Assembly (NCBI GenBank): GCA_036001745.1
Contig: DASYTZ010000142.1
Location: 1,131-65,130, forward strand
DNA: 64,000 nt
Source of the DNA: Pyrinomonadaceae bacterium
Lineage (GTDB): Bacteria > Acidobacteriota > Blastocatellia > Pyrinomonadales > Pyrinomonadaceae
Direction: 5' to 3'
Each line of letters starts with the position of its first letter. The first letter of the stretch is position 1. The notes under the pieces were generated by a model. That model was not told where the DNA came from, did not search any database, and saw only the letters and a program-made list of their open reading frames with translations. The position numbers were made by a program, and so were the translations under genes. Below are positions 1 to 43,355 of this stretch, in pieces.

Positions 1-64
1 AAAATTACCGCGTGGCATTTTCGGATGAGGATGTAGATTCGGAGTACAAGGTGGTGTAACAACA

Positions 65-98
65 GACATCAGAAGTCAGAAGTCAGAAGTCAGATGTC
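65..98. repeat. Left arm of a heptamer-array inverted repeat (CAGAAGT x3 then CAGATGT) flanking the four-helix-bundle gene
   Basis: Read directly: GACATCAGAAGTCAGAAGTCAGAAGTCAGATGTC. The reverse complement of 561..590 matches about 25 of 29 aligned positions. Confidence 0.85.
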
Positions 99-131
99 AA
101 AGATCTTAGCCCCCACTGAGAGAGGTGAACA

Positions 132-542
132 ATGCCTGTCGAAGCGACTGCGAAACAGCCTATCCGGATAAACTCTGCCAAAGATTTGCAGGTGTACAAG
201 GTTGCTTACGAGCTGGCGATGAAAATCTTTGAAATTAGCAAGAGATTTCCGCCTGAAGAACGATTCGCGTTAACAAGTCAGATTCGACGATCCTCGCGGT
301 CCGTTTGCCTGAATCTTCGGGAAGCGTGGGCAAAACGGCGATATGAGGCACACTTTGTCAGCAAGCTTACCGATTGTGATGGCGAAAACAGTGAAACCGA
401 CTCATCACTAGACTTCGCGCGCGACTGTGGCTATATAACGACTGAACAGCATGCTCGTTTGGTAGCCCGGTGCGAAGAGGTCGGCAAGATGCTCGGAAGT
501 ATGATCAAACATCCCGTTTCGTTTTTGATATCCTTTCACTGA
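132..542 (+). CDS. Four-helix-bundle protein (23S rRNA intervening-sequence protein family, same family as DGR Avd)
   Basis: The ATG is preceded by GAGAGGTG. The sequence VYKVAYELAMKIFEISKRFPPEERFALTSQIRRSSRSVCLNLREAW...EQHARLVARCEEVGKMLGSMIK is typical of this family. The gene looks AT-richer than its flanks by eye. Confidence 0.85.
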   Translation: MPVEATAKQPIRINSAKDLQVYKVAYELAMKIFEISKRFPPEERFALTSQIRRSSRSVCLNLREAWAKRRYEAHFVSKLTDCDGENSETDSSLDFARDCGYITTEQHARLVARCEEVGKMLGSMIKHPVSFLISFH

Positions 543-560
543 CCAGCACGCCGCGTTGTT

Positions 561-590
561 CTGACGTCTGATATCTGACGTCTGATGTCT
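561..590. repeat. Right arm of the heptamer-array inverted repeat (CTGACGT CTGATAT CTGACGT CTGATGT)
   Basis: Read directly. It is complementary to 65..98. It contains the first ATG (585) of the downstream cyclase ORF. Confidence 0.85.
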
Positions 591-2465
591 ATGCCTTTTC
601 GCCAATTCCATTACCGCTGGCAATTCGATCTCCGATCTTCTCCCGAAAAACTTTGGCCTCTGGTCGCCGACACGAATCGCTTTAATCGCGACACGGGTGT
701 GCCGGCGGTGGAGGCGGTTGGCGAAAAGAGCGGGACCGCCCGTCGTTTGAGGTTGTCGAGTTTTGGAATTCCTGTCGAATGGGAAGAGCAGCCTTTCGAG
801 TGGGTGCGGCCGCAGCGCTTCGGCGTTGTCCGTCGTTACACCAAAGGCCCGATCGCTGAGTTGCGTGTGCTGGCACAGTTGACGCCGATCGAAAACGCAG
901 CTGGCGGTTCATCATCGGACCGTCGCGCCAACGGTTCGGTTGGGACGAAGCTCATCTACGAAGTCTGGGCGAAACCGAAAAATCTTCTCGGGACGTTGGC
1001 CATTCCAATTCAAATCGGCATCATCAGCGCACGAAATTTCGCCCGCACGTTTCGGCAGTACGATGAACTGGCGCAAAGCGAATCTGCGGCAGCGACGACT
1101 CCTGCTGCCGAAGTTGAATTCACTCCCGGAGGTCGCTCGCGGCTCGTGGAACTCGGTGAGCGCCTCATTGCGAACACCTGCGACGAAGAGTTGGTTGCCC
1201 TGCTTGTCGATCACATCGAGAACGCTGACGATTTTGCATTGTCGCGCATTCGGCCTTATCGACTTGCGAAGCACTGGCAGAAGCCGCGCCGCGATGTTTT
1301 GGAGCTTTGCTTTCAGGCCACGCGCGTGGGCATGCTCGACCTGCAATGGAATCTCGTCTGCCCGATGTGCCGCGGCGGCGACGCAAAGGAATCGCTCAGC
1401 GAGCTGTCGGCGAATGTGCACTGCGCCGGCTGCAACATAGATTTCGGCGTGAACTTCGAGCAGTCAGTCGAACTCACGTTTCGTCCCAATCCGTCGATTC
1501 GGAATATAGACGTGGAAACGTTCTGCATCGGCGGTCCGCAGGTCACGCCGCACATCGTCGCGCAACAGTTGCTTGCGCCCCAGTCGCAAAGATCGGTCAG
1601 CATTCAACTCGAGGAGGGTCGTTATCGTTTGCGGACGTCTGGTCTGTCAGGCCGGCAACATCTGCGCGTGACAGAGGATGGTCCGTGCGGAACGGTTTTG
1701 CGGGCGTGTCCGGATGGTTGGTCAAACAGCGAAGTGGAGATCTCCAGAACTTGTAAACTGGAACTCGAGAACGCCACGACTGATGAGCAACTCTTCATTC
1801 TTGAGCGCACCGAATTCTCGGACGAAGCGGCGACGGCGGCGGAAGTAACCGCGGTTCAGATGTTCCGTGATCTGTTTGCGCGCGAAGCTCTGCGTCCAGG
1901 TGAACAGATTTCAGTTGGGACGCTCACGGTGCTTTTTACAGATTTGAAAAACTCGACCAGGTTGTATCGCGAAATAGGCGACGCGACTGCCTTCGGCCGC
2001 GTGATGAATCACTTCGACGTTCTGAAGCAGACCATCGCTTCGGAAGACGGCGCGCTGGTTAAGACGATTGGCGATGCCGTGATGGCTGTGTTCCGCCGGC
2101 CCGCAAATGCTCTGCGTGCGATGCTCGAAGCGCAGCAGCAGCTCGCGAATCCACCTGACGGAATGTTGCCACTGACGTTGAAAGCCGGATTGCACACCGG
2201 CCCATGCATCGCGGTGACGCTGAATGATCGTCTTGATTATTTCGGCTCGACCGTAAATTTGGCGGCGCGTCTGGAAGGCCAATCGACCGGTGATGACGTC
2301 ATTATTTCTAACGTCGTCTATTCTGATCCCGAAGTACGCGAACTATTGAGCGAGTGCCCGGCCGGTCTTGCTGCGACGCGATTCACGATTCCGTTGAAGG
2401 GATTCGACGATGAGCAATTCGAGTTGTGGCGCGTCGCGCGCGCCGCCGCCGTACATGCAAAATAA
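585..2465 (+). CDS. Class III adenylate/guanylate cyclase with an N-terminal SRPBCC-like region and a Cys4 cluster
   Basis: The C-terminal FTDLKNSTRLY...KTIGDAVMAVF...GLHTGPC...DYFGSTVNLAARLE matches the class III cyclase catalytic domain. A CPMCRGG...CAGCN cluster lies mid-protein. The start is 585 or 591; both are ATG. Confidence 0.85.
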   Translation: MSMPFRQFHYRWQFDLRSSPEKLWPLVADTNRFNRDTGVPAVEAVGEKSGTARRLRLSSFGIPVEWEEQPFEWVRPQRFGVVRRYTKGPIAELRVLAQLTPIENAAGGSSSDRRANGSVGTKLIYEVWAKPKNLLGTLAIPIQIGIISARNFARTFRQYDELAQSESAAATTPAAEVEFTPGGRSRLVELGERLIANTCDEELVALLVDHIENADDFALSRIRPYRLAKHWQKPRRDVLELCFQATRVGMLDLQWNLVCPMCRGGDAKESLSELSANVHCAGCNIDFGVNFEQSVELTFRPNPSIRNIDVETFCIGGPQVTPHIVAQQLLAPQSQRSVSIQLEEGRYRLRTSGLSGRQHLRVTEDGPCGTVLRACPDGWSNSEVEISRTCKLELENATTDEQLFILERTEFSDEAATAAEVTAVQMFRDLFAREALRPGEQISVGTLTVLFTDLKNSTRLYREIGDATAFGRVMNHFDVLKQTIASEDGALVKTIGDAVMAVFRRPANALRAMLEAQQQLANPPDGMLPLTLKAGLHTGPCIAVTLNDRLDYFGSTVNLAARLEGQSTGDDVIISNVVYSDPEVRELLSECPAGLAATRFTIPLKGFDDEQFELWRVARAAAVHAK

Positions 2466-5223: not shown

Positions 5224-7344
5224 ATGCAAACACTTTCGAACGCATCGCTTAAAGATCGACTGTCTGCTGCCGAGCCCGTGCGCGCCAAGCTCACGGTGGC
5301 CCCGGCGCCAGAGCGGCGGCTGCTGAATCGCGAGATCAGCCTGATCGAATTCTTTCGTCACGTGCTGGATGAAGCGCGTGATGAGAGCAATCCGCTGCTC
5401 GAACGGCTGCGATTTCTAACTATTTTCTCCAGCATCGTGGACGAGTTCTTCATGGTCCGCGTTTCCGGCCTGAAGGAAGAAGTCGAGCACGGATACACGC
5501 AGCCTTCGCCGGATGGCCTGACGGCTGCTGAACAGTTGCGGGAAATTCGCAGCCGGCTTGAACCGATGTTCGCCGAACAGATGCGCTGTTTGCAGGAAGA
5601 GATCCTGCCGGAGCTCGCGCGCCACGGAATCGAAGTCGCTCCGTATGCTTCATTGTCGAACATTGAACGCGAACAAGCCGACGAGTACTTTGCTCATCAT
5701 GTCTTCCCGGTGCTGACGCCGCTGGCGGTCGATCCATCGCACCCGTTCCCTTACATTTCGGGCCTAAGCCTGAATTTCGGAATCATGGTGAAGGCCGCGG
5801 AATCAGACGATGAAAAGGGATCGTTTGTGCGTCTGAAAGTTCCGCCGACGCTGCCGGGTTTGGTGTTGGTTGGCCCGCACGCGAAGTACACATTTCTGAG
5901 CGATGTAGTTACCGCGAATCTGAGTTCGTTGTTTCCGGGAATGACGGTCTTGCAAGCGCACACGTTCCGCGTCACGCGCGATGCCGACATCGATGTGCGC
6001 GAAGACGAAGCCGAGGATTTGCTGCGTGCGTTGCAGAAAGAGCTGCGCAAGCGGCGGTTTGGCGCGCCCGTGCGTCTCGAAATTTCAAAGGGGATGCCTG
6101 ACGAGATGGCGGCGTATCTGATGGAATCAATCGGCGTCGAGCCTGACGATGTCTACGTGCTTGACGGGCCGCTGAACATCCAGGACATGGACCAGCTTTG
6201 CGAATTGGATCGTCCGCATTTGAAGTACCGGCCGCTGCGCACAATCATTCCAGCGCCGTTACAGGAGCGGGAGTCGATCTTTGATGCGATCAAGCGCCGA
6301 GACGTGCTGCTGCATCACCCGTACACAGACTACTCGGTCGTGGTTGATTTCATCCGGGCGGCTGCGTTTGATCCGAATGTGTTGGCGATCAAGATTTGCT
6401 TGTACCGAACTGGGCAGCAATCTGAAATCGCCGAGGTGTTGCATCAAGCCGGCGAAATGGGCAAGCAGGTCACCGCGTTAATCGAGCTGAAGGCGCGCTT
6501 CGACGAAGAGAACAACATCGAGTGGGCGCAGCGGCTCGAGCGCGCGGGCGTGCACGTTGTCTATGGGCTCATTGGTTTGAAGACGCACTGCAAGTTGTCG
6601 CTGGTCGTGCGGCGCGAAGGAGAGACGCTGCGTCGTTATGTGCACATCGCCACGGGCAACTACAATCCGACGTCGTCCTCGACCTACACGGATTTCGGCA
6701 TCTTCACCGCTGACGAACAAATCGGCGAGGACGCGACTGAATTCTTCAATTATTTAACTGGGCACTCGCGGCAGGCAGAGTATCGAAAGCTGCTGGTCTC
6801 GCCGGTGAATCTGCGCGAGAAGCTTACGCAGCTAATTGAGCGGGAAACCGCGCACGCAAAATCAGGACGACAGGGGCGAATTGTCGCAAAACTGAATCGG
6901 CTTGCTGACGGGGCAATCATTGAAAGCTTGTACGAGGCTTCGCAGGCCGGCGTCTCGATCGATTTAATCGTGCGCGGCATCTGCATGTTGCGTCCGGGCG
7001 TTCCTGGACTGTCGGAAAACATTCGCGTGCGCAGCATTGTCGGCCGGTTCCTCGAGCACAGTCGAGTGATCTACTTCCTGAACGACGGCAACGAAGAGAT
7101 CTATCTCGGCAGTGCTGACTGGATGGTTCGCAATCTAAATCGACGCGTCGAGATCGTGATGCCGGTGCAGGATCCCCGTTTGAAAAAGTATCTCAAGGAA
7201 GACGTGCTCGAAGTCTATCTGCGCGATAACGTCAAAGTGCGCGAGCTGCAACCCGACGGCTCGTACGTTCGCGTCTGCCGCGACGACGGCGCCGACGGCT
7301 TCGACAGCCAGATGTACTTCGAAGGCATCGACATCAACACCTGA
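5224..7344 (+). CDS. ppk: Polyphosphate kinase 1
   Basis: 706 aa. NREISLIEFFRHVLDEA...NPLLERLRFLTIFSSIVDEFFMVRV and the C-terminal PLD-like repeats (RFLEHSRV) are typical of PPK1. Confidence 0.95.
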   Translation: MQTLSNASLKDRLSAAEPVRAKLTVAPAPERRLLNREISLIEFFRHVLDEARDESNPLLERLRFLTIFSSIVDEFFMVRVSGLKEEVEHGYTQPSPDGLTAAEQLREIRSRLEPMFAEQMRCLQEEILPELARHGIEVAPYASLSNIEREQADEYFAHHVFPVLTPLAVDPSHPFPYISGLSLNFGIMVKAAESDDEKGSFVRLKVPPTLPGLVLVGPHAKYTFLSDVVTANLSSLFPGMTVLQAHTFRVTRDADIDVREDEAEDLLRALQKELRKRRFGAPVRLEISKGMPDEMAAYLMESIGVEPDDVYVLDGPLNIQDMDQLCELDRPHLKYRPLRTIIPAPLQERESIFDAIKRRDVLLHHPYTDYSVVVDFIRAAAFDPNVLAIKICLYRTGQQSEIAEVLHQAGEMGKQVTALIELKARFDEENNIEWAQRLERAGVHVVYGLIGLKTHCKLSLVVRREGETLRRYVHIATGNYNPTSSSTYTDFGIFTADEQIGEDATEFFNYLTGHSRQAEYRKLLVSPVNLREKLTQLIERETAHAKSGRQGRIVAKLNRLADGAIIESLYEASQAGVSIDLIVRGICMLRPGVPGLSENIRVRSIVGRFLEHSRVIYFLNDGNEEIYLGSADWMVRNLNRRVEIVMPVQDPRLKKYLKEDVLEVYLRDNVKVRELQPDGSYVRVCRDDGADGFDSQMYFEGIDINT

Positions 7345-37843: not shown

Positions 37844-38788
37844 ATGACTACGCTCATCGATCGCATCACTTCCGGCGACCCGAATGCAGTCGCTCGCGCA
37901 ATCTCACGAGTTGAAGACGGTGCGCCTGATGCTTCGGAATTGATGAAAGACGTGTTTGCGCGCACCGGCCGGGCGTTGGTGATCGGAATAACCGGCGCGC
38001 CCGGCGCTGGGAAGTCAACGATCGTGGACAAGCTCGCGGCGTTCTATCGAACAAAAGGCGAGCGCGTCGGTATCATCGCCGTCGATCCGTCGAGTCCTTT
38101 TTCCGGCGGCGCGATTCTCGGCGATCGCATTCGGATGCAGACGCTGTCGCTGGACAAGGGCGTCTTCATTCGATCGATGGCCACGCGTGGAAATCTCGGC
38201 GGTCTGGCGCGCGGAACGGTTGACGCCGTGGCGATCCTGGATGCTGCCGGTTATCAAAAGATTCTGGTTGAAACTGTCGGCGTTGGACAGGACGAAGTTG
38301 AGATCGTCAAGACCGCCGATGTTTGCGCCGTGGTGCTGGTTCCCGGCATGGGCGACGACGTACAGACGCTGAAAGCCGGCATCATGGAAATCGGTGACGT
38401 GCTCGTGCTGAACAAAGCAGACCGTGAGGGCGCTCTGCGTGCCGAAAAAGAGTTGCAGGGCCTGCTGATGTTGGCAGTGCGCGAAGATGCCTGGCAACCG
38501 ACGATCGTGAAGACGGTTGCGACTGAGAGTAAAGGCATTGAAGAGCTTGCTGCGGCGATCGAGCAGTGCCGAAAGTTTCAGCAGTCACGTCCGGAAACCA
38601 GTGAACGCCGTCGCGCCATTGCGCGTTGGCGGATTCTCGAGTTACTGCGCGAACAACTGGTGAAGCGGGCGCTGAATGGAAACGGCGCGGTCGAGAAGCT
38701 CGATCGACTGGCGGCGGAAGTCGCATCAAAACAGCGCGATCCATATTCGGCGGTGGAGCAGCTGATGAAACCAGAGGTCAAAGATTAG
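37844..38788 (+). CDS. meaB: Methylmalonyl-CoA mutase-associated G3E GTPase MeaB/ArgK
   Basis: GITGAPGAGKST, VETVGVGQ, LVLNKADR. I used the ATG at 37844 because the track start overlaps the ACAD gene. Confidence 0.85.
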   Translation: MTTLIDRITSGDPNAVARAISRVEDGAPDASELMKDVFARTGRALVIGITGAPGAGKSTIVDKLAAFYRTKGERVGIIAVDPSSPFSGGAILGDRIRMQTLSLDKGVFIRSMATRGNLGGLARGTVDAVAILDAAGYQKILVETVGVGQDEVEIVKTADVCAVVLVPGMGDDVQTLKAGIMEIGDVLVLNKADREGALRAEKELQGLLMLAVREDAWQPTIVKTVATESKGIEELAAAIEQCRKFQQSRPETSERRRAIARWRILELLREQLVKRALNGNGAVEKLDRLAAEVASKQRDPYSAVEQLMKPEVKD

Positions 38789-38790
38789 AG

Positions 38791-38872
38791 GTCAGATGTC
38801 AGACGTCAGAACCAACCGTTAGGGACGCGTGAGGTCGCTTACTGACATCTGACATCTGATCTCTGACATCTG
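38791..38872. repeat. Empty heptamer-array hairpin (GTCAGAT GTCAGAC GTCAGAA ... CTGACAT CTGACAT CTGATCT CTGACAT)
   Basis: Arms at 38791..38811 and 38842..38872, with 17 of 19 aligned positions complementary and a 30-nt loop. It fills the meaB-mce gap. It uses the same unit family as 65..98 / 561..590. Confidence 0.85.
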
Positions 38873-38877
38873 CTGTT

Positions 38878-39279
38878 ATGAAGATTCATCACATCGGCAT
38901 CGCCACGAGTGGCATCGACGGCGCTGCGGAAGTCTGGAGCGATCTGCTCGGATTGCAGGCGGGCCACACTGAAGATGTGCCGGGACAAAAAGTGCGCGTT
39001 TGCATGTTACCGGTTGGCGAATCGCGTTTGGAATTGCTCGAACCGATGTCGCCGGATTCGCCGATCTCAAAGTTTCTCGAGAAGCGTGGGGCTGGCATCC
39101 ATCATATCGCGGTGAGCGTCGAAGACATTCGCTCAGTTTTGGACGATTTGAAAGCGAAGGGCGCCAGGTTAATCGATGAAGAGCCGCGAACGGGCGCGGG
39201 CGGTTGCCTTGTCGCCTTCATTCATCCATCATCGACCGGAGGCGTATTGCTGGAACTTGTAGAAGATCCAAAACCGTAG
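38878..39279 (+). CDS. mce: Methylmalonyl-CoA epimerase (VOC family)
   Basis: MKIHHIGIAT...ELLEP...GAGIHHIAVSVEDI...GGVLLELVE is typical of MCE. Confidence 0.85.
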   Translation: MKIHHIGIATSGIDGAAEVWSDLLGLQAGHTEDVPGQKVRVCMLPVGESRLELLEPMSPDSPISKFLEKRGAGIHHIAVSVEDIRSVLDDLKAKGARLIDEEPRTGAGGCLVAFIHPSSTGGVLLELVEDPKP

Positions 39280-42764: not shown

Positions 42765-43256
42765 ATGAGAAAGATTCTGTTCCTGACAACGTTGATGGCG
42801 GTTCTGCTGGGCGTGCAGTCGATCGTTTACGCGCAGGGCGGCGCGAAGCAGGGACCGCAGGCCAGCCGTGATTTGGAGTTGGACAAGGATTCGCTGCACA
42901 ACCTTGAAGTTGCGCGCCACTATTTCAAACTGAAGAAAGCTTACGTGGCGGCGCTACAGCGGTGCGAAGAAATAAAAGCAGCCAATCCAACGTTCTATAA
43001 GATTGACGAGGTCTTGTATATCGCGGGTGAAAGCAGCCTCAACCTCGCTGCAGGAAAGGGGAGGCAGAAACCCTCGCTCTACGTGGTTCGTGAAGGCGAG
43101 ACCAAACGCACGCCCACGCCCGACGAGTTTCGCGACATGGCGCGCGATTACTTTTCGCAGTTGGTGAACAGTTATCCAGAAAGTTCTTTTCGCGGTCAAG
43201 CAGAAGACGCGCTCCGCGCGCTCGGTGGACCGAAGCCAAAGAGCAGTGGGCAGTAG
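42765..43256 (+). CDS. Exported small TPR-like protein, BamD-like (tentative)
   Basis: Signal peptide MRKILFLTTLMAVLLGVQSIVYAQ. ARHYFKLKKAYVAALQRCEEI and LVNSYPESSFRGQAEDALRAL resemble BamD/YfiO half-TPRs. The stop codon lies inside the heptamer array. Confidence 0.55.
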   Translation: MRKILFLTTLMAVLLGVQSIVYAQGGAKQGPQASRDLELDKDSLHNLEVARHYFKLKKAYVAALQRCEEIKAANPTFYKIDEVLYIAGESSLNLAAGKGRQKPSLYVVREGETKRTPTPDEFRDMARDYFSQLVNSYPESSFRGQAEDALRALGGPKPKSSGQ

Positions 43257-43298
43257 CAAGCGGGCAGTGAGCAGTGGGCAGTAGGCAGTAGGCAGTGG
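43243..43298. repeat. Eight tandem heptamers, consensus GCAGTRG
   Basis: GCAGTGG GCAGTAG CAAGCGG GCAGTGA GCAGTGG GCAGTAG GCAGTAG GCAGTGG, read directly. I saw no complementary arm nearby. Confidence 0.9.
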
Positions 43299-43320
43299 AG
43301 GCGCTACGTTCGTTCAGTTC

Positions 43321-43355
43321 AAAATCCCAAATCTAAAATCAGAAATCGAAAATCC
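43321..43355. repeat. Five tandem A-rich heptamers (AAAATCN)
   Basis: AAAATCC CAAATCT AAAATCA GAAATCG AAAATCC, immediately before the ATG at 43360. Confidence 0.7.

Follow-up and report, generated by a model that had tools for sequence, protein, structure and literature searches.

A four-helix-bundle gene between inverted heptamer arrays in a Pyrinomonadaceae genome, a probable copy of a widespread intergenic cassette resembling 23S rRNA intervening sequences

The window analyzed here is a stretch of 64,000 nucleotides from a Pyrinomonadaceae bacterium (GenBank assembly GCA_036001745.1, contig DASYTZ010000142.1, positions 1,131 to 65,130 of the forward strand), and all coordinates refer to it unless another locus is named. 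Close to its left edge, at 64–590, a small gene for a four-helix-bundle protein lies between two inverted arrays of tandem heptamers. This element has four parts, all on the forward strand: a left arm of GTCAGA+N-type heptamers (CAGAAGT three times, and CAGATGT; 64–99); a short leader within the loop (100–131), read from the sequence, with a Shine-Dalgarno-like GAGAGAGG at 118–125, 6 nt ahead of the ATG; the open reading frame (ORF) of 136 aa (132–542); and a right arm of heptamers complementary to the left arm (CTGACGT, CTGATAT, CTGACGT and CTGATGT; 560–590). The left arm begins 5 nt past the TAA stop codon (57–59) of a Fer4/nuoI-like gene. The end of the right arm directly abuts the start codon of a host gene encoding a DUF5939 domain and a class III adenylate/guanylate cyclase (591–2465, forward strand), which was assigned from domain matches and orthologues.

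Tandem Repeats Finder reported arrays at 69–99 (TCAGAAG, 4.4 copies) and 560–590 (TCTGATG, 4.4 copies). The best inverted pair joined 64–94 with 560–590 over 31 nt at 87% complementarity (27/31). Minimum-energy and centroid RNA folds of 55–600 alike closed the long-range stem between the arms, with a 1-nt mismatch every 7 nt. A preliminary description of this DNA had placed the gene between inverted heptamer arrays within a protein-coding neighborhood and had named folding as a check, and each of these points was borne out; its count of about 25 of 29 complementary positions was right as to complementarity and is replaced by the measured 27/31. It had also taken the right arm to supply the first ATG of the cyclase. 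An in-frame ATG does fall inside the arm, at 585, but the conserved start according to orthologues is the ATG at 591, immediately past the arm. The gene had been judged by eye to be AT-richer than its surroundings, and its GC content was 48.9%, compared with 56.1% in the remainder of the window. Neither a sigma-70-like promoter nor an intrinsic terminator was found in 1–1000. There was no match to any Rfam family, rRNA included, anywhere in the window, and no match to PADLOC defense families.

The ORF at 132–542 was the only PF05635 ORF in the 64-kb window. It scored 108.2 bits with PF05635 (E = 3e-31; cut-off 33.8) and 100.2 bits with TIGR02436 (cut-off 24), placing the protein in the S23p/IVS-protein/Avd-like family. 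Sequence matches to the structures 2RLD and 2GSC had E-values of about 2e-8. A Foldseek search with an AlphaFold2 model of low confidence (mean predicted local distance difference test score of 62.5) likewise placed 2GSC and 2RLD at the top (probability 1.0, TM-score 0.55–0.67), followed by Avd. Both 2GSC and 2RLD were deposited with five chains. The Avd chains among the fold matches, together with weak matches to bAvd (PF22296; 50.8 bits) and DivGenRetAVD (NF033474; 41.5 bits), would fit a reading of the gene as the Avd accessory gene of a diversity-generating retroelement. The DivGenRetAVD score, however, was well under its cut-off of 80, no reverse transcriptase lay within about 3.5 kb on either side (called genes of the related loci L081–L085; ORFs of the related locus L001 and of the window), and the gene stands alone in a stop-to-start spacer. 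The sub-cut-off Avd score and the absence of a nearby reverse transcriptase essentially refute a retroelement, which is retained only as a highly improbable reading. The repeat search of 1–1000 reported inverted repeats only, and no search was aimed at template/variable repeat pairs.

PF05635 genes and their flanks were then surveyed across the family. The clade of the window's protein is termed A-type. A genome scan for this clade gave 80 loci with proteins 70–98% identical to the window's, belonging to more than 10 phyla as assigned from record names. These included: Acidobacteriota, Verrucomicrobiota, Planctomycetota, Ignavibacteriota, Chloroflexota, Bacteroidota, Desulfobacterota, Clostridia, Kiritimatiellota, and Neomarinimicrobiota. 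An upstream GTCAGAG/GTCAGAA-type array accompanied 61 of 83 A-type copies, and a complementary downstream CTCTGAC/TTCTGAC array accompanied 48 of 83. The A-type loci contained further inverted array pairs made of other heptamers, and the spacing between their arms was bimodal, at either about 45–100 nt or about 350–520 nt. Widely spaced pairs with other units bracketed PF05635 genes of other subfamilies. The B-type subfamily (motif SVGANYREANRA) carried CGAATTG/CGAAATT arms in two phyla, with copies in Pyrinomonadaceae, Blastocatellia, and one deltaproteobacterial genome. A third subfamily, C-type, was represented by an independent sample of 80 metagenome loci obtained in a scan with an alignment of three closer sequences. 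Arrays were found at 44 of the 64 C-type genes that had usable flanks, and the downstream unit was in every case the reverse complement of the upstream one. The C-type units included GTTTCAA, GTCCAAA, GTTCCAA, GTCTCAA, GTCCTGA, and others. The pattern was also seen in RefSeq-annotated cultured organisms: two Nostoc plasmids, Riemerella (GGTTTAA/TTAAACC), and Gemmatirosa.

Inverted flanks were scored by strict, ungapped complementarity (match ≥14) in a sample of 148 PF05635 genes comprising A-type and C-type members. Strong inverted flanks occurred in 68% of these genes, and their median length was about 31 nt. By the same score, direct orientation gave 9%, combinations of A-type left arms with C-type right arms gave 0%, and 598 control ORFs from the same loci (non-PF05635, 90–170 aa) gave 0.5%. 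RNAduplex stem strength on 160-nt flanks did not discriminate, as real and control pairs alike gave long gapped duplexes. Whether other four-helix-bundle genes are flanked in this way was a test set beforehand, and the figures of 68 and 0.5% answer it in favor of a systematic arrangement. The gene-plus-arms architecture is systematic across phyla and protein subfamilies, and the window feature is very probably a member of this cassette class.

These figures also bear on the simplest alternative, that coincidental simple-sequence repeats happen to surround an ordinary small gene. Heptamer repeats are over-represented in many bacterial genomes (PMC4692102), which lends such a coincidence some background plausibility. 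Set against it are the excess of inverted flanks over control ORFs, the four period-7 arrays of the window vs. 0.1 in shuffled sequence, the invariable reverse complementarity of flank units in the C-type sample, and the covariation of units with protein clade. Chance repeats are refuted by the inverted-flank excess together with the unit-protein covariation, and the probability left to them is negligible.

Some sampled loci showed other arrangements. In L169 (Pseudanabaena galeata plasmid NZ_CP112875.1), at 1058–1700, a four-helix-bundle gene lies between cas6 and cas4, with 17 copies of AGCTAAA upstream and nine copies of AGCCAAA downstream. A paper on the discovery of clustered regularly interspaced short palindromic repeat (CRISPR) systems lists "23S rRNA IVP" among CRISPR-associated domains (PMC10910872). 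The link of arrays such as those of L169 to CRISPR may come from mistaken repeats or may be a real association. In L078, at 5349–5948, a shikimate-kinase-like host gene lies between the inverted arrays AACACCG and CGGTGTT, so arrays in two neighboring spacers can enclose an ordinary gene too. No 23S motif was found in the approximately 170 sampled loci, and no A-type relatives were found in viral contigs. A full-text literature search, with subscription-only papers outside its scope, found nothing that links PF05635 genes to heptamer arrays beyond the Coxiella intervening sequence.

The heptamer units share a sense-strand skeleton of G-T-Y-N-N-A-R. GT was found on the sense strand in 131 of 153 long arrays, vs. 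about 36% expected by chance. A GT/AGT core is likewise present in the cyanobacterial short tandemly repeated repetitive (STRR) units CCCCAGT and CAACAGT and in the reverse complement of the Beggiatoa unit TAACTGA. Position 7 of the unit had the highest within-array variability (0.244 vs. 0.04–0.13) and the lowest pairing between arms (71% vs. 86–97%). A six-base core followed by one variable base thus explains the periodic mismatch in the stem. Stems of the family had a median length of 32 nt (interquartile range 27–37), or about 4.6 units. Stem length peaks at 4–5 heptamer units and related proteins were deposited as pentamers, a parallel in numbers that is suggestive only, given that the detection threshold drops short arrays. 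A shifted-register control was accounted for by edge effects and gave no evidence of a mirrored unit order between the arms.

Unit sequence followed protein relatedness. Units matched at ≥6 of 7 positions in 90% of pairs whose proteins were ≥85% identical, in 63–68% of pairs at 65–85% identity, in 16% at 55–65%, and in ≤1% below 55%; the chance level is about 1%. The Spearman correlation for this covariation was 0.58, a value reached by 0 of 200 permutations. The GTCAGA core was kept in more than 10 phyla despite saturated synonymous sites (pS 0.87), and it seems that the unit sequence, and not complementarity alone, is maintained.

Cassettes occupy exact stop-to-start spacers, almost always on the strand of both neighbors. 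The cassette was on the same strand as its upstream neighbor in 99 of 108 cases and as both neighbors in 87 of 108. With the arms included, the median gaps were 86 nt upstream and 49 nt downstream, and the spacer was nearly all filled. Host genes 3′ of right arms started 0–7 nt past the arm and had no Shine-Dalgarno sequence (window 585–593 and 38873–38880; L001 2393–2402). As these downstream start codons stand at the base of a roughly 30-bp stem, their translation presumably requires that the stem be cleaved or melted.

Related loci showed how the spacers around the window cassette vary. L001 (DASXTE010000125.1, from the Pyrinomonadaceae metagenome-assembled genome SMAG_U4684) was 97% identical to window 1–700 and had the same gene order; the sole length difference was one extra 7-nt left-arm unit in L001. 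Beyond the point at which the window's left edge falls, L001 had a B-type cassette filling the spacer ahead of the Fer4/nuoI-like gene, and the window's cassette type filled the spacer behind it. The gene order NDK, DUF4190, DUF4440, Fer4, cyclase, ABC was kept in relatives with cyclases 71–97% identical. Among these relatives the two spacers flanking Fer4 contained a full cassette, broken copies, other elements, or nothing but an empty 14-nt spacer. In L082 the arms of one copy were intact but its ORF was interrupted by a stop codon, L081 contained a frameshifted copy, and L085 an internal-deletion derivative in which both arms and only the first 20 codons remained. The L085 derivative illustrates a route by which gene-less hairpins can arise, and it points to gene-less hairpins such as the one at 38785–38872 of the window being decay products of cassettes.

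Other elements were found at the orthologous spacers. L083 (2725–2844 and 3372–3490) and L084 (3400–3495) contained gene-less inverted arrays of other units (TCTTAGG and GTTTCAA), and GTTTCAA is a unit that flanks C-type PF05635 genes elsewhere. The Fer4-flanking spacers appear to have been colonized repeatedly. The spacer between Fer4 and the cyclase in L082 (2970–3479) was occupied by a Y1-transposase-like gene of 169 aa, with a weak match to PF01797, lying between palindromes (ccatccgcgtaagcggatgg) that resemble repetitive extragenic palindromes (REP). Different small elements thus seem to use the same intercistronic spacer.

Gain and loss could be seen in two Nostoc plasmids with a shared operon, each of which is empty at the spacer that is filled in the other. 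Where empty, the sites were 3-nt, array-free spacers ("TAG gtt ATG" and "TAA ttt ATG"), and the filled sites had a left array, an ORF, and a right array exactly where the other plasmid was empty. Two different cassette types were present in neighboring spacers of one operon. The reciprocal filled and empty sites indicate that arms and gene come and go as a unit, and it is probable that they are gained and lost as one. Between relatives, arm lengths differed in 7-nt steps. Intact copies were under purifying selection, with a median ratio of nonsynonymous to synonymous differences (pN/pS) of 0.22 and pS saturated at 0.87. Gene GC tracked host GC (r = 0.87) at about 7 points lower. Recent horizontal transfer as the cause of the 70–80% protein identity across phyla was ruled out by the saturated synonymous sites and the GC tracking; older horizontal transfer is likely.

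Within the window, a gene-less hairpin of the same unit type as the cassette was present near 38.8 kb, in agreement with the preliminary description. Its left arm (GTCAGAT, GTCAGAC, GTCAGAA; 38785–38811, forward strand) overlaps the MeaB stop codon. Its right arm (CTGACAT type; 38841–38872, forward strand) ends 5 nt short of the ATG at 38878 of a methylmalonyl-CoA-epimerase-like gene, and the hairpin fills the spacer between the two genes. The paired arms, also delimited as 38787–38811 and 38842–38872, folded with an energy of -45.3 kcal/mol (z = -4.6). The corresponding hairpin in L172 differed by one 7-nt step. Two further arrays, adjacent and unpaired, take up the spacer that separates a YfiO-like gene from a PfkB kinase gene: eight copies of GCAGTGG at 43243–43298 and five of AAAATCN at 43321–43354. 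No complementary partner and no cognate PF05635 gene for either array was found within the window. GCAGTGG was similarly paired with CGAAACT arrays in L006 (3713–3872).

Arrays of this kind could also be host-evolved intercistronic hairpins, that is, general regulatory or stabilizing elements like the cyanobacterial STRR repeats, with the gene merely standing between two of them or acting as a trans-acting autoregulator, and with nothing mobile. The density of 0.39 per kb at which arrays with many different units occur away from PF05635 genes would follow naturally, as would the bracketing of a host gene in L078, the persistence of the gene-less hairpin between MeaB and the epimerase in relatives with 83–98% epimerase identity, the unpaired arrays at 43243–43354, and the drift of gene GC toward host GC. 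Host hairpins would not lead one to expect inverted flanks at 68% of PF05635 genes and at 0.5% of control ORFs, nor Nostoc sites that are array-free when empty and two cassette types in adjacent spacers of one operon. They also sit poorly with one spacer holding different unit types in different lineages, with the decay of individual copies into pseudogenes, and with proteins 70–80% identical over more than 10 phyla. On this evidence host-evolved hairpins are improbable.

The reading preferred here, with a rough probability of 0.6, is that window 64–590 is one copy of a widespread, unnamed cassette class of the intervening-sequence type, which would be co-transcribed with its host operon, processed by RNase III, and would encode a protein that binds its own repeats. 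Such a cassette would have no promoter of its own and would be transcribed within the host operon. In the RNA, the arms would form a roughly 32-bp stem, and RNase III would cut it. Cleavage would free the mRNA of the four-helix-bundle protein and separate the flanking cistrons, as in the ORF-bearing intervening sequences of 23S rRNA, which would represent the same element lodged in a helix of rRNA. The protein, as an Avd-like pentamer, would bind the stem of its own repeats, with the variable seventh base as a flipped-out contact. Binding of the protein to its own stem would explain why the unit sequence, beyond mere complementarity, is conserved and why it tracks the protein clade.

The two biochemical parts of this reading draw on different relatives of the cassette. 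ORF-bearing 23S rRNA intervening sequences of Coxiella, Leptospira, Brucella, Haemophilus, and Xanthomonas encode S23p (PF05635). Excision by RNase III within the stem of the intervening sequence has been shown for Coxiella, Leptospira, and Salmonella, and in Coxiella the enzyme cuts in the stem (PMC4990558). The analogy with 23S intervening sequences drawn in the preliminary description is backed by these Coxiella data. Because the Coxiella element shares the build of the cassette, the stem may be processed by RNase III within an mRNA as well, and the chances of this are judged to be about even. Avd, which has been called "similar to S23 ribosomal proteins," assembles into a pentameric barrel with a positive charge; all five protomers touch an imperfect RNA stem-loop, and flipped-out bases occupy inter-protomer crevices (bioRxiv 10.1101/2023.10.23.563531). 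Such a mode of binding would accommodate a duplex in which one base in every 7 nt pairs poorly, and binding of the repeats by the cassette protein is proposed from it; such binding is conceivable, and somewhat less likely than processing of the stem.

Several observations weigh against this reading. Transcription, RNase III cleavage, and protein-repeat binding are inferred here by analogy. No target-site duplication was found at the boundaries between filled and empty Nostoc sites, where the 3-nt spacer is replaced. Neither a recombinase nor a reverse transcriptase was found near the cassette, and no mobility mechanism is in evidence. The saturated synonymous sites and the tracking of host GC mark the copies as old residents rather than recent transfers. 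About one-third of family members had no detectable arrays (e.g., a Calothrix plasmid copy), and a Pseudanabaena copy was bracketed by direct, not inverted, arrays. The covariation of unit and protein could be explained by common descent of gene and arms without recognition. A Nostoc punctiforme protein 30% identical to the window's carries GTCAGGA/GTCAGAA arms, and a strict code of one protein to one heptamer was rejected for this reason. The filled and empty cassette states proposed in the preliminary description exist at orthologous loci, where full, broken, internal-deletion, and array-free versions were found, but not at the 38.8-kb site: the spacer between MeaB and the epimerase was in no case filled among eight related loci, which had only hairpin variants and one array-free spacer. 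Finally, among the non-Watson-Crick positions of the arms G·U (147) equaled A·C (144). There is thus no detectable selection on a sense-strand RNA helix, and inverted repeats acting at the DNA level fit equally.

This equality of mismatches, which carries no RNA-specific signature, is the opening for a DNA-level mobile element. The arms would then be terminal inverted repeats moved by a recombinase encoded elsewhere, as REP-associated tyrosine transposases (RAYTs) move REP doublets forming hairpins (REPINs), and the gene would be cargo or a specificity factor, with the RNA stem incidental. Such an element would also account for arms and gene being gained and lost together and for the existence of gene-less derivatives. 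The Y1-transposase-like gene with REP-like palindromes in L082 lies at the spacer of the window cassette, and the architecture parallels that of RAYT genes and REPINs (PMC3116915). The clean Nostoc boundaries, however, lack target-site duplications, and no transposase consistently accompanies the cassettes. The 92% agreement in strand with the upstream host gene and the exact stop-to-start placement would be unexpected for a DNA element unless selection were strong, and cleavage of the equivalent stem by RNase III has been demonstrated for genuine 23S intervening sequences. A DNA-level element is accordingly held to be unlikely, if a little less so than host-evolved hairpins.

A bolder extension of the preferred cassette reading was also considered. 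PF05635 pentamers would bind their own GTYNNAR arrays and, together with the gene-less arrays, would form a self-propagating system like that of REPINs and RAYTs, built around an Avd-like RNA-binding cofactor. Spread would proceed through a stem-loop RNA that RNase III excises and the pentamer binds, with a reverse transcriptase acting in trans to copy it. The 23S intervening sequences, the cyanobacterial STRR repeats, and the excess of heptamers in bacterial genomes would all be products of this system. The proposal is speculative and on the whole doubtful.

Overall, the 23S intervening sequences look like a special case of a larger class of intergenic elements. What is new here is an intervening-sequence element in an apparently commoner habitat between protein-coding genes, with clade-specific arms and gene-less derivatives. 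Three puzzles may share one answer: the nature and origin of ORF-bearing 23S intervening sequences, open since the early 1990s; the heptamer excess; and the role of the very abundant but uncharacterized PF05635 proteins. The over-representation of heptamer tandem repeats in bacterial genomes was reportedly noted in 2007. A paper from 2015 stated that there was no detailed literature on this excess (PMC4692102). If the rRNA case is indeed a special case, thousands of operons in Acidobacteria, Verrucomicrobia, Planctomycetes, Bacteroidota, Cyanobacteria, and other phyla would hold an intervening element, which would probably shape mRNA processing and the translation of the downstream gene that starts at the stem foot. 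The question can be tested in culturable hosts: Nostoc punctiforme, Riemerella, and Xanthomonas. Caution is needed in annotation, where heptamer arrays can pass for CRISPR-like repeats and PF05635 genes can be taken for CRISPR-associated ones.

Among known systems, insertion sequences and miniature inverted-repeat transposable elements differ from the cassette in that no target-site duplication marks the Nostoc boundaries. The REPIN/RAYT system is closer, as there too a single- or low-copy gene lies between inverted short repeats, the repeat is dispersed as gene-less hairpins, and the repeats are clade-specific (PMC3116915). The cassette gene, however, encodes a non-enzymatic-looking four-helix bundle whose Pfam matches were only PF05635 and PF22296, and not the Y1 transposase family PF01797. 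The repeats here are tandem heptamer arrays, in contrast to the single palindromes of REPINs, and the cassette is without known mobility chemistry.

Heptamer repeats described from bacteria include the cyanobacterial STRR repeats, GGGAATC in Xanthomonas, and TAACTGA in Beggiatoa. Those of Xanthomonas form 70–75 convergent inverted pairs, and such repeats are transcribed and their function is unexplained (PMC4692102, PMC4679880). The arrays reported here resemble them as intergenic tandem 7-nt units whose length varies by whole units between relatives while their position is kept. They differ in being tied to the PF05635 family and its clades, a link that the papers found do not make. Avd probably shares a homologous four-helix-bundle fold with the cassette protein, and it binds an imperfect RNA stem-loop beside its own gene. 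In contrast to Avd, the window protein falls below the equivalog cut-off and has no reverse transcriptase near it, and its candidate RNA partner is a periodic heptamer duplex, where that of Avd is a 9–11 bp stem with a tetraloop.

The 23S intervening sequences are distinguished from the window copy first of all by location. The window copy lies in a spacer between Fer4/nuoI-like and cyclase genes and not in rRNA, so it lacks the location that defines an intervening sequence. Clade-specific heptamers and many gene-less derivatives belong to the cassettes described here, and RNase III excision is shown for intervening sequences and inferred for the cassette. In build, the two are alike. In Coxiella, the terminal stem of the intervening sequence measures 28 bp, GACAGAT heptamers stand in tandem directly ahead of the ORF in a copy number that varies between strains, and the GC content of the element is about 6.5 points below that of the genome (PMC4990558). 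Both elements encode a protein of the same family, and in both the gene forms the loop of a stem of about 28–32 bp made by terminal inverted repeats. Both have heptamers directly 5′ of the ORF (GACAGAT in Coxiella; GTCAGAA/GTCAGAT in the window) in a variable number of units, and both lie 6–7 GC points below their host and carry an ORF that is prone to decay.

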